The notes under the pieces were generated by a model. The model made no database searches, was not told the origin of the DNA, and saw only the letters and a program-made list of their open reading frames with translations. A stretch of DNA of 63,750 nt, filler included, from Xylographa opegraphella (taxonomy: Eukaryota), in the NCBI GenBank assembly GCA_022813865.1. It is 6 parts of 6 records of this genome, joined end to end, with 100 filler letters (N's around TTAATTAATTAA, not from the genome) between each part and the next. Parts side by side here need not be neighbours in the genome. Positions count along the whole stretch, not along the records: positions 11,019 to 21,898 come from JALDZX010000171.1; 5 more parts are not named here. One strand, given 5' to 3'. Position numbers and translations under genes: made by a program. Below are positions 17,238 through 23,937 of the stretch, piece by piece; position 1 is the stretch's first letter; each line of letters starts with the position of its first letter.

Positions 17238-17911
17238 CGACAGCTCGAGCAGGAGCGCGGCCCGATGCTTGTGAGGACCTTGCATCCCAAGTACTTTCAA
17301 CTACATACTATATTCTAGCCGAGGCACAAGAATGATTCCCTCCTTGGGACTAGCTGTTGCTCAGACAAGCACACATGGCAGGACTACCTTATCTACCAAA
17401 CTTACCTGCAGAAGGTTCCGGTTGTCTGGCTCACATCTGCTCCCAGGTGCAAAGCTGGATGAATTTGTGCAGCTAGTAAGGCAGATATTGAAAAGTCGGA
17501 GAACAACAGTGTCCATACTTCGTTTTTCATTGATGAATAGGTTAGCGTGGCATTCAACTGTTCCTTAGAGAAGTGATGTTGTCCATTGACGGATACATGA
17601 AGAATATATAAAGTCCTAATGAAGACTTACAAGTCTTTCCAAGGCTTCCATTAACTCACACAGATATTATCTGCTCGTATTTTTACGTTCGGCAGCCTCG
17701 AAACCATTATGGCAGCGCTCATTTCTTGCTGGCACCGGTCCCCAGGATGCCGGACCAATCCAAAGCCTAGTATACAGAATATACACTGCACTGGCAGTCA
17801 ATCGGCAATCACAAGATTGCTCTGAAGCTCCTTGATTGTGTAGAGATCAAAATGGATGGTACTTTAACGAGACCTGCGTGTAGAGAGTTTGCTATAAGAG
17901 TATGTATGAAT

Positions 17912-18100
17912 TTGAATGAGCATTAATAGTTTGCAAATCAGAGGTGAGTTCAGAGTACTATGTTAACGAAGGTCGATAATTAATCACGCTGCGACTACGT
18001 ATGGGGTTGAATGAGTCTTAATAGTTCGCAGATCGAAGGTGTATTCAAAGTGCCATATAAATGAAGGTCGGTTATTGATCACACTTTGCATACGAGGGGA
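17912..18100. repeat. Diverged tandem duplication of a ~95-bp unit
   Basis: Units start TTGAATGAG at 17912 and 18007 and share TTAATAGTT.GCA.ATC, GAAGGTCG and ATCAC. Confidence 0.8.
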
Positions 18101-18348
18101 GGATGTCGGCTTGAGTGATACGTGCATACCCCGGAACAACCAACAGAACAAAGAACATCATATAATCAAGCATCGGGAATGCTCCTTAGAAACTGAGTTG
18201 CACAGCCGCAGATTCAATATAGGACTCTTCATCACCATTGAAAATTCGATTTGTAATAGGGTGAACGCGATCGGTGCCCTTATCTAGTCCGTCCTAAACC
18301 CAACATTATTAAGCACTCCTTCAATTCGCAAATACACTCACAACGGCC

Positions 18349-18917
18349 TCACAGTAATCCGATAGTAACGTCACCCTTGACCCGCGCATAAAGATCCACC
18401 TAGAAAGAAGTTCACATCAACCCAATAGTCACATCTCCCTTGACCCGCGCGTAGAGATCTACCTCGACTTCCAGATCCAGTTCGATCTTGATTTTCAGAC
18501 TGCTGTCCTTCTGATCCGGCTTGACGGGGCGGTCGAGGATGCGCGATTGGCGTACAACGGGTTGTCGGCCTCCTGGCGGTTGCTGTTGTGCCGCAGGGTT
18601 GTTCTGCTGTTGCTGAAGGGCGCTGCTGTACTGCTGTTGCAGCTGCTGGATCTGTTGCTGAAGAGCGTTGTTCTGCTCCTGCAGATTCGAGTCTTGGTTT
18701 TGGGTTTTGGACTTGCGGTTGCCGGCGGGTTGGAGAGCTTGTTGTGGTTGTTGTTCGGAGTCGGAATTTTGGTCGGAATTATCGTTCTCTGTCCTGATCA
18801 ATTGGTCAGCTGTTGATCCGATGTGCAGTGCTTGTCTCGGCGTGTCTACTGTTTGACTTGCGGTGCAGAGGTCTGCGAGTTTTTCGGGGCAAGTTTGGGA
18901 GGAGACTTTTGCGACAT
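18349..18917 (-). CDS. Gln-rich conserved fungal hypothetical protein with two alternative C-termini (stop at 18412 unspliced, or 18349 after splicing 18400-18462)
   Basis: ATG at 18917 (MSQKSPPKLAPKNSQ...), one intron near 18796-18849, C-terminal SSLKIKIELDLEVEVDLYARVKGDVTIGL[M/L]. Confidence 0.8.
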
Positions 18918-19494
18918 GATTCCTATTTTTGCGACGTCGTAAAAATGGTACTGAGAGAGGACGGTAGGGTCTGAGTAAGGGTCTGGATAGAAACGCAGGG
19001 GCTGGCTGTACAATTTATGGCAAAGCTGAACAAGTGGCTGGGAGTAGTACAAGTACAATTTGTAGGGGGTACTTCCATACCATCCTGTCATAAAAGCTGG
19101 AACTTGGTCATTGATGGGTAGGGGGGTCTGCCCTCGATCGTGCGAGGGTCAAGGATAGAGACTATCCAGTTCCGCCGTGGAAGACCATTGCGGTCATCGT
19201 GCATACGGGCTCACGGTTACAGTAAAACGCCGCCGAGGCGAGGGTTTCAGATGGGTTCCTTGTTTTTGCGGATCGGGCCTGCCGATGACCAACCGCCATC
19301 CTTGCAAGCTCTTCCAAGTCTACCTTAATAAGCCACAAGTGGATCGCGGCACGATGTACGCAATAATCTACCTGTCGACACCACAATTTCCTTGTCTTTA
19401 ATCGGTGTTGATACCATGACTACCATAAAAAGGAGTCCGAATATTGAATTCCATTACGCCGCCGTACTTTTGTCCTAAGGTTAAGTCTGAAGCA

Positions 19495-21251: not shown

Positions 21252-21483
21252 TGTTACGGCTCGCTATCTCACCAGAAAAGCAGGCCTAGAACCACAGCTA
21301 TAGGTGAGCGATTTCAACCTAGAATAATACAAGGAAGCAAGTTTANNNNNNNNNNNNNNNNNNNNNNNNNNNNNNNNNNNNNNNNNNNNNNNNNNNNNNN
21401 NNNNNNNCTAGCCTGAGTCCCGGACGCGCTTTAGTCCCGTTCAGTCTATCACTTGTTAAGGTGCCATGTAACACGCCGTTACA
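21252..21483. mobile_element. Solo LTR family A
   Basis: TGTTACGGCTCGC...GCCGTTACA flanked by TSD CGTTT. Confidence 0.9.
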
Positions 21484-22594: not shown

Positions 22595-23937
22595 ATGTCT
22601 AAAGCAGTTCTCGACGAAATATCGCATCGCAGGTATAATCCTCTTCGTGGTAGCTGGATACTGGTGTCCCCGCACCGCACAAAGCGACCATGGCAGTGAG
22701 TCCCCTTCTGCCCCATCACCATTCTTATAGATGAAGCAATACGATACTCAGACGTAGTAGGGGCCAGCAAGAAGCAGCCTCGAAGACAAATTTACCATCC
22801 TACGATCCTTCATGTTATCTTTGTCCGGGAAATAAGCGTGCTCAAGGGGAAGTCAATCCCAAATATAAGAACACATATGTGTTCGTGAATGATTATAGTG
22901 CTATCAAGGAGGTCCAGAATGGCTATACTCGATATGACGTTGATGGAAGTAAGGTGTTGCAGCGGCAAGACACAATAACCTTGGCTGAATTTGACAGGTC
23001 TCTCCTCGTTGCTCCTACGAGCTGAAGCTGTAACAGGGAAGTGTTACGTGATCGCATTTGCAGCTGCTCACGACTTAACTCTTGCCGATTTGTCCCTGCC
23101 AGAAATTCTTGCAGTGATAGATACTTGGACTGAGATCTATACGGCTCATATATCGCCATTGTCACCCTTGTCCAGAGCCTTCTCGCCGACAGTTTTGCCA
23201 CCAGCAAGTCATGGATATGGGACGGCCAGTCATAACAAGGAACAATACCGCTATATGCAGATATTCGAGAATAAAGGTGCAGCCATGGGCTGCTCGAATC
23301 CACATCCTCACGGTCAGATCTGGACAACTTCCTGTTTACCCGAAGAACCAGGTCTGGAGTTAGACCAGTTGATAAAGTACAAGCAGGAACAAGGTGGTCT
23401 AAACATGCTTGAAGACTATGCGTCGTTGGAATCCGAAAAGAAAGAAAGGCTGGTATTTGAGAACAAAGCCTTCGTTGCAGTATGTCCCTGGTGGGGTACC
23501 TGGCCGTTTGAGGTTATGATTATTGCACGGCAGCATAAAAGAGCGCTCGTAGATCTTGAAAAGGGAGAGAGACAGGAATTAGCCGAAGCTATAGCAGAAG
23601 TTACAAAACGATACGATAATCTGTTTGAAACGCAGTTTCCTTACAGTATGGGTGTTCACCAGGCACCATTGACAGGGACTGATATCGAGATTAACGCAAG
23701 CCATTTACACATACATTTTTTCCCACCTTTGCTCCGGAGTGCAACAGTCAGAAAATTTTTGGTCGGGTTGGTCTTCGCATTTTCTTCATGGTATATCACA
23801 GTAAGGTTAATAATTGAGATAGATACGAGATGCTGGCAGAGCCGCAAAGAGATATCACGCCTGAACAAGCCGCAGTGCGATTACGCAATTGTGGTGGAAA
23901 ATTGTATAGAATAAAATCGAGTAATAAAATCGAGTAA
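22595..23937 (+). CDS. GAL7: Galactose-1-phosphate uridylyltransferase; exons 22595-22695, 22761-22948, 22998-23766, 23823-23937
   Basis: [50 protein letters not shown] active site, [32 protein letters not shown]. Confidence 0.96.

Follow-up and report, generated by a model that had tools for sequence, protein, structure and literature searches.

Results

The gene and its protein family

The window, meaning the whole stretch of Xylographa opegraphella DNA that was analysed (63,750 nt, filler included), carries on its minus strand a gene whose coding end is present twice. In transcriptional order, its features are as follows.

18850..18917, minus strand: exon 1, with the ATG at 18917-18915; 68 nt, or 22 codons plus 2 nt, encoding MSQKSPPKLAPKNSQTSAPQVK..; RNA contigs cover 18849-18966
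18794..18849, minus strand: intron 1, 56 nt, phase 2, with donor GTAGAC, branch-like GCTGAC and acceptor CAG
18463..18793, minus strand: exon 2 up to the terminal donor, an open reading frame that includes the conserved block ..RQSRILDRPVKPDQKDSSLKIKIELDLEVE and a predicted helix rich in Q
18400..18462, minus strand: putative terminal intron, 63 nt, phase 0, with donor GAG/GTAGAT and acceptor TCTAG
18412..18462, minus strand: copy 1, VDLYARVKGDVTIGLM followed by TGA, the reading frame of an intron-retaining message
18400..18411, minus strand: spacer, ACTTCTTTCTAG, a pyrimidine tract with the acceptor AG
18349..18399, minus strand: copy 2, the coding part of the last exon, VDLYARVKGDVTIGLL followed by TGA, to be read once the message is spliced
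18278..18348, minus strand: 3' UTR, reaching at least this far, from RNA contigs X1 record 1 and X4 record 23

A search with the gene product returned 599 relatives at E<=0.01, which make up a large family of "hypothetical proteins" of Pezizomycotina, and the named members came from Lecanoromycetes, Leotiomycetes, Dothideomycetes and Eurotiomycetes. The family shares an invariant block, ..SRIxDRP..KIKIELDLEVEV[DE][LI]YARVKGDVTIGL[ML]. A Pfam search gave nothing above the cut-off (best E 0.097), a profile search of the PDB gave 0 hits at E<=1, and the protein atlas returned solely "hypothetical protein" clusters of Ascomycota at 0.81-0.82, without family or function. Judged by these matches, the product is an uncharacterised protein found across the Pezizomycotina. 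The AlphaFold monomer model of the 129-aa ORF placed the Q-rich helix at residues 36-66 (pLDDT ~60, pTM 0.23); the conserved C-terminal part was not folded in this model (pLDDT ~60), which is uninformative on the role of the last residue. In metatranscriptomes from soil and decaying wood, the summed contig depth over the conserved block at 18443-18496 was ~1,900-39,800. Many fungi thus seem to express the family strongly, although genes cannot be ranked by depths of this kind.

Elsewhere in the window, a galactose-1-phosphate uridylyltransferase (GAL7) gene lies at 22991-23914 on the plus strand; its relatives carry Pfam PF01087/PF02744, and the best named ones are from Xylographa species, with 82-88% identity. 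By sequence similarity, the window organism is a Lecanoromycete. Masked or unknown bases occupy ~21343-21420, where an ORF translation ends in a string of X.

The doubled terminus

Directly after ...IKIELDLEVE, exon 2 runs without interruption into the 51 nt of copy 1 (18462-18412), which has no acceptor of its own and reads to a TGA at 18414-18412 (..IGLM), inside the terminal intron. The 12-nt spacer (18411-18400) separates it from the 51 nt of copy 2 (18399-18349; ..IGLL). A base-by-base check showed that the copies differ at 10 of 51 positions, comprising nine synonymous third-position changes and one ATG/CTG (Met/Leu) difference; at least 41 matches out of 51 would arise by chance (p=0.25) with a probability of 1.6e-16. 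The doubled 51-nt endings and the spacer, first described in the original prediction, were exact when the minus-strand sequence, its translation and the individual bases were compared. A repeat search stretched the unit to 56 nt with a period of 63, adding TCGAG and TCTAG ahead of the respective GT. AG/GT stands at both intron borders in the window (TCGAG/GTAGAT and TCTAG/GTGGAT), and copy 1 together with the spacer forms a phase-0 segment of 63 nt bounded by GT..AG.

Within copy 1, GTA GAT (Val-Asp) makes up the donor, and TTG ATG (Leu-Met; TTGAT) the likely branch point. Retention and splicing would each give a product of 149 aa with the last residue as the sole difference, in keeping with the earlier suggestion that the two outcomes yield nearly the same protein.

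Two other repeats were seen downstream. A third partial repeat of the module at 17871-17886 (16 nt, 75-88% identity) was dismissed as chance, as its flanks had no module-like reading frame. A 95-nt unit is repeated head to tail with 74% identity at 17898-18087, ~260 nt downstream of the gene's second stop, and no reading frame or function was seen for this repeat.

RNA contigs from related fungi

Four metatranscriptome runs (X1-X4) were searched; these consist of assembled contigs from mixed communities and relatives, and are read here for presence only. In all four runs, contigs joined exon 1 to exon 2 through the joint 18792>18849 (56 nt skipped, CT..AC, cut +1), and the interior of intron 1 (18794-18847) had zero depth. 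The prediction of an intron 1 with a GTAGAC donor was thus confirmed at its exact borders, 18849-18794, in 4/4 runs, and since intron 1 is spliced, this type of donor is demonstrably used in the same gene.

At the terminal intron, the contigs took two forms. Spacer position 18407 was covered in 4/4 runs, as in the retained form, and three listed contigs bridge copy 2, the spacer and copy 1, namely X3 record 15 (18341-18502, 4 other letters), X4 record 24 (2 other letters and a 4-nt gap) and X1 record 2. Pre-mRNA could be the origin of these unspliced contigs, but intron 1 had no coverage in those runs, a point against their coming from DNA or bulk pre-mRNA. Five contigs (three from X4 and two from X3) leave the window at 18401 and continue, after reverse complementation by hand, as ..IKIELDLEVE; in these, the upstream exon is joined straight to copy 2. 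Contigs that look spliced in this way might instead stem from a relative of the LL type that lacks the intron. Further contigs stop precisely at 18461 (records 5, 12, 27 and 28) or at 18401 (record 23), and these positions are the expected fork points of the spliced and unspliced forms in an assembly graph. Downstream, X1 record 1 and X4 record 23 span 18278-18369 and 18278-18401, respectively, with 2-4 other letters. A transcript contig with a poly(A) tail, L017, shows EVE continuous with an LL-type end that has the codon signature of copy 2. Contigs that look like the spliced and the retained form were thus seen in relatives, while no joint across 18400-18462 was among the joints listed for the four metatranscriptome runs.

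Layouts among related loci

A peptide-pattern scan of metagenome contigs gave at least 594 matching stretches and at least 60 related loci, 60 of which were classified; these were placed taxonomically through similarity only. The layout of the window was present at 34 of the 60 loci among the matches listed (33 complete loci and L059, whose contig starts inside copy 1), a share that is biased upward because the peptide patterns match a doubled gene twice. Seven further loci among the 60 listed had both copies in another layout or in a damaged form. The layouts that differ from the window were as follows.

L049, L054 and L055 (three loci): a strong GTAAGT intron three codons further on, then two tandem acceptors, the first giving ..YARVKGDVTIGLM and a stop, the second, 52 nt later, giving ..YARVKGD[VI]TIGLL and a stop
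L053 (1440-1785): an ordinary 62-nt intron at EVE/V, copy 1 (LM and stop), a 47-nt spacer ending in CTCTAG, and copy 2 (LL and stop)
L019 (one locus): a decayed copy 2
L048 (535-780): a damaged gene, its frame broken upstream and copy 1 interrupted by an in-frame stop, with copy 2 intact
L060 (640-760): a fragment in which unrelated sequence is followed by the end of copy 1, then the spacer and copy 2
11 of the 60 listed loci: intron-less single-copy genes ending in LM
4 of the 60 listed loci: single-copy genes ending in LL
L051 and L052 (LL), L057 and L058 (LM), four loci: a single terminal exon behind an ordinary intron at the equivalent position

Only in the layouts of L053 and L049/54/55 does each of the homologous exons have an acceptor of its own. 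Copy 2 of L053 is split by a further GTATGT..CAG intron after ..VDLYAR. The exon structure of L053 is quite different, so the doubled ending has been kept even there. Two identical loci, L005 and L008, have TTA in place of the copy 2 stop, and their spliced product would be six residues longer (LGLTFC).

Among the 120 proteins in the matches listed, 108 ended in ..IGLM and 11 in ..IGLL, the latter including named NCBI models from Xylographa, Lambiella and Microthyrium. The motif occurs twice in the Aureobasidium pullulans model P0119, which is wrongly spliced through both copies; locus L029 is 93% identical to this model.

Splice signals written in codons

For the comparison of signals, the 33 complete canonical loci and the window were reduced to 29 non-identical loci (28 loci and the window), which fell into 22 clusters at 90% nucleotide identity and 15 at 85%. 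The upstream exon ended in GAG and the intron began with GTAGA in 29/29, and the borders were GAG/GTA and YAG/GTN in every case. The Val codon at the start of copy 1 was accordingly GTA in 29/29, whereas at the equivalent position of copy 2 it was GTT in 16, GTC in 8, GTG in 5 and GTA in none. Intron-less single-copy LM relatives had GTA at this Val in 2/12, and the difference between doubled and single-copy loci was significant by Fisher's test (6e-8; 8e-6 when each 85% cluster is represented by a single locus). On these codon counts, there is selection on the donor base. The spacer varied from 5 to 40 nt, for an intron of 56-91 nt in relatives, with no conservation of its sequence, yet always ended in YAG (TAG in 22, CAG in 7). 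Copy 1 and the spacer, proposed to be an intron from the window, hence kept the signals GAG/GTAGA..YAG in 29/29 loci, with partial backing from RNA contigs. Intron length modulo 3 was 0 in 8 loci, 1 in 12 and 2 in 9; with all three values present, copy 2 is readable only after splicing.

The suggestion of TTGAT as the branch point also stood up as a candidate. The only yTRAy motif found in all 29 introns was yT[GA]AT, at 10-45 nt from the 3' end, formed by the Leu-Met pair of copy 1 as CTGAT, TTGAT or, once, TTAAT. Single-copy relatives carry TTG ATG as well, so the pair may have been inherited from an ancestor and need not be maintained by a role as branch point. The second-to-last Leu (18418-18420 in copy 1 and 18355-18357 in copy 2 of the window) was yTG in 28/29 first copies and yTA in 23/29 second copies (Fisher 8e-12); the bias in copy 1 fits a branch-point role. 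The final residue was Met in copy 1 and Leu in copy 2 in 29/29 canonical loci, and the same asymmetry was seen in L049/54/55 and in L053, where the spacer offers a branch point. The stop was intact in 29/29 first copies and 28/29 second copies.

These signals bear on the possibility that the site is not spliced at all and that copy 2 is left over in the 3' UTR, either from a tandem duplication or from a deleted paralogue that had it as its last exon. In favour of this, the gene models of relatives mostly stop at ..IGLM (108/120 among the matches listed), and L019 has a copy 2 that has decayed. However, copy 2 elsewhere is under protein-level constraint (pN/pS 0.077), has an intact stop in 28/29, is directly preceded by YAG in 29/29 and lies in all three frames relative to copy 1. 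The GTA donor is invariant, LL-type transcripts exist, and 11 of the 120 listed proteins, with the NCBI models from Xylographa, Lambiella and Microthyrium among them, end in ..IGLL. The comparative data already contradict the absence of splicing, which we regard as extremely unlikely. The variant in which copy 2 survives from a deleted tandem paralogue, raised in the original prediction, was rejected, since the layout and its conserved splice signals recur in 34 of the 60 loci listed.

Selection on the two copies and their age

Substitutions were counted by pooled pairwise Nei-Gojobori comparisons, which are phylogenetically non-independent. Between the 29 loci, pS was 0.654 and pN 0.051 for copy 1 (pN/pS 0.078), and 0.742 and 0.057 for copy 2 (pN/pS 0.077). 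Between the two copies of one locus, pS was 0.76 and pN 0.057, so that their synonymous divergence was saturated. The ratio of ~0.08 for each copy at saturated synonymous sites upholds the claim, made from the window alone, that both copies have been under purifying selection as protein. Because of this saturation, the 48-nt copies were compared by nearest-neighbour counts instead of a tree. The nearest neighbour of a copy 2 was another copy 2 in 24-25/29 and its own copy 1 in 1/29, while the nearest neighbour of a copy 1 was another copy 1 in 27-28/29. Third-position identity was 0.47 within a locus and 0.37 when copy 1 was set against copy 2 from other loci, and the copies within a locus tended to share Asp-Leu or Glu-Ile. 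The saturation and the nearest-neighbour counts argue for old copies that evolve separately, and against recent duplication or frequent gene conversion; the saturated divergence within loci likewise points to an old origin of the duplication.

An always-removed, constitutive intron, in which copy 1 resembles copy 2 through the constraints of splicing or through conversion by copy 2, is a reading that we hold to be very unlikely. Donor and candidate branch point do lie inside copy 1, and the excess of third-position identity within loci (0.47 against 0.37) would suit it. The variation in copy 1 is nevertheless almost purely synonymous (pN/pS 0.078, pS 0.65), which splicing signals leave unexplained, and the stop after copy 1 is intact in 29/29. 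Conversion is disfavoured by the fact that a locus's own copy is the nearest one in only 0-1/29 and by the within-locus pS of 0.76. Unspliced contigs were present in runs where intron 1 was uncovered, and L051/52, which have abandoned copy 1, have an intron of ordinary appearance.

We give next to no credence to the notion of many recent and independent duplications, or of an artefact of assembly. Short tandem duplications are common, and the tendency of the copies within a locus to share Asp-Leu or Glu-Ile would be in line with this notion, but the same asymmetries (GTA against other Val codons, Met against Leu, and yTG against yTA at Leu15) are found in all lineages, and synonymous sites within loci are saturated. 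The doubling also recurs in independent assemblies from many samples, which speaks against an artefact. As far as sequence comparison can tell, the arrangement is old and common to at least 15-22 divergent lineages, including the Lecanoromycete of the window and the Aureobasidium relative L029. The class of the window and the Dothideomycetes separated on the order of 300 million years ago. The check for a doubled terminus in relatives thus came out positive (34/60 listed loci). The layout fits the proposed tandem duplication; a recent intron gain does not agree with its presence in at least 15-22 divergent lineages.

Discussion

Origin and comparison with known systems

The layout fits a tandem duplication of a segment that spanned an AG/GT site and the stop codon. 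Alternatively, the end of an intron and the last exon may have been duplicated, as in L053, followed by loss of the first intron, after which the exon junction GAG/GT would serve as the donor. An ordinary intron at the same phase-0 site is present in L051/52, L053 and L057/58, and single-copy genes without the intron are represented by the 11 LM loci and L019.

The window's layout is what the tandem-duplication model for how introns are gained predicts (Rogers 1989), for which cases have been described by Hellsten et al. 2011 (PMC3265369) and further ones in PMC4974935, as far as the accessible parts of these papers go. Like the intron of ATP2A1 (accessible part of PMC3265369), the intron here is homologous to the exon that follows it, with 41/51 matches and a period of 63 in the window. 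AG/GT stands at both borders and the splice signals come from coding sequence, as in the Rogers-type introns of the passages available from PMC3265369 and PMC4974935. Splicing here would also restore the undoubled coding sequence of the single-copy relatives and of L017 (..ELDLEVE followed by VDLYARVKGDVTIGLL), again as in the Rogers-type introns set out in the accessible text. In contrast to ATP2A1 and other Rogers-type introns of those passages, the duplicated segment includes a stop codon, and retention would give a complete protein at any intron length. Moreover, the intronic copy has not decayed but is still coding and under purifying selection in many lineages; for the vertebrate ATP2A1, the accessible part of PMC3265369 describes no intronic copy that is coding. 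Lehmann et al. 2010 (PMC2891723) noted, in the portion of their paper that is accessible, that, beside a constitutive intron, tandem duplication permits retention "as a temporary or permanent alternative". The case in that portion has a length that is a multiple of three and inserts residues into the protein, whereas the lengths here are 0, 1 or 2 modulo 3. With the stop codon inside the intron, the multiple-of-three condition of Lehmann et al. is removed and the retained form has no extra residues.

The arrangement can further be compared with two kinds of alternative splicing. Exitrons are coding introns inside exons, without a stop codon, and their removal deletes protein sequence. By this definition, the present intron resembles an exitron in lying within an otherwise continuous coding exon and in having a retained form that is a normal protein-coding mRNA. 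Unlike an exitron so defined, it holds a stop (TGA), and its removal swaps in an equivalent ending, with the length of 149 aa kept. Alternative or mutually exclusive exons are said to be born by tandem exon duplication, reportedly as set out by Kondrashov & Koonin in 2001 and Letunic et al. in 2002. As in such exons, going by what is said of them, there are two homologous coding units with one used per mRNA, and L053 and L049/54/55 are of such a kind. In the window, however, copy 1 has no acceptor, and the products are near-identical and bring no protein diversity.

Searches of the literature, outside subscription-only papers, found no description of the gene family or the arrangement among retained tandem-duplication introns giving the same protein, and no paper with the peptide motifs. 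Tandem-duplication introns, retention and alternative exons from duplication are of a known kind. What appears to be new is the stop codon within the duplication, the long persistence of coding on both sides in many lineages, and splice signals that are written in codons.

A probable partly retained intron with a coding copy of the last exon

The explanation that we consider likely is an ancient and conserved intron of the tandem-duplication (Rogers) type that is partly retained, both outcomes being translated into near-identical proteins of 149 aa. In the window, this would be a spliceosomal intron of 63 nt at the end of the gene, and its opening 51 nt would repeat the last exon in a form that still codes. 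With the intron left in, translation would pass from ..ELDLEVE into copy 1 and stop at its TGA (..IGLM); when it is removed, ..ELDLEVE would be joined in phase 0 to copy 2 (..IGLL). Both mRNAs would encode a full-length protein, since an ending and a stop are also present within the intron. The signals would be made of codons, with Glu/Val-Asp or Val-Glu (GAG/GTA GAN) as the donor and Leu-Met (yTG ATG) as the likely branch point, and the short spacer with its YAG would be the only non-coding part of the intron.

The reason for keeping both forms, we infer, lies in these signals. Removal would be incomplete because the amino acids encoded at the donor and the probable branch point fix these signals and leave no room for improvement; with signals fixed in this way, a good share of messages would keep the intron, and copy 1 would stay under selection. 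The coding conservation of copy 1 implies that retained messages are translated often enough to matter. Removal would still be favoured, as the synonymous GTA would otherwise have drifted like other third positions, and for that reason copy 2 and the acceptor would stay under selection too. The outcome would be a stable, self-backed-up ending at which intron retention is harmless. Three exits from this state can be envisaged, all represented among the 60 classified loci: splicing may be lost and copy 2 decay (L019), copy 1 may decay into an ordinary intron (L051/52), or a precise loss of the intron may leave an LL gene (possibly L047 and L056).

A refinement of this explanation, rather than a contradiction of it, would be that the isoforms differ in function, through the Met or Leu end or through their 3' UTRs (oxidation sensitivity, stability or localisation), and that the choice of splicing is regulated, with stress as one conceivable cue. 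The fixed difference between the ends, Met in 29/29 first copies and Leu in 29/29 second copies, extends to L049/54/55 and L053. Loci with a strong GTAAGT donor, which must be spliced anyway and leaves a choice between two acceptors, have kept both copies too, and the conservation of GTA shows that splicing itself is favoured. On the other hand, single-copy relatives work with Met (11 loci and L019) or with Leu (4 loci). Leu has six codons and Met one, so that we estimate 0 Met in ~15 copy 2 lineages to be only mildly unlikely under neutrality, and the Met of copy 1 is explicable by the branch-point reading. We regard functionally different isoforms as a possibility, though an unlikely one. 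A bolder form is that the doubled ending is a conserved switch of a single residue, Met/Leu, together with the 3' UTR, in an abundant small protein of several fungal classes. We hold this to be rather improbable. In such a switch, the ratio would be set by the splicing efficiency of the weak, codon-encoded intron, and could for example shift to the retained form when heat, drying or dormancy impairs splicing.

Significance

As a source of new introns, tandem duplication has long been debated, with few documented cases. Once splicing has taken hold, decay of the intronic copy is to be expected, whereas here both halves are readable and under selection as protein in many divergent fungi. On the side of annotation, most gene models of the family (108/120 among the matches listed) stop at the first ending and miss the intron, and at least one model (P0119) splices wrongly through both copies. 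The arrangement offers ideas that are testable in culturable relatives, namely a coding sequence that doubles as splice signals, a weak intron that is neither lost nor perfected, and intron retention made harmless by design. If the switch were true, the gene would hold the clearest living Rogers-type intron frozen halfway, with a copy that has been coding since before the fungal classes diverged.
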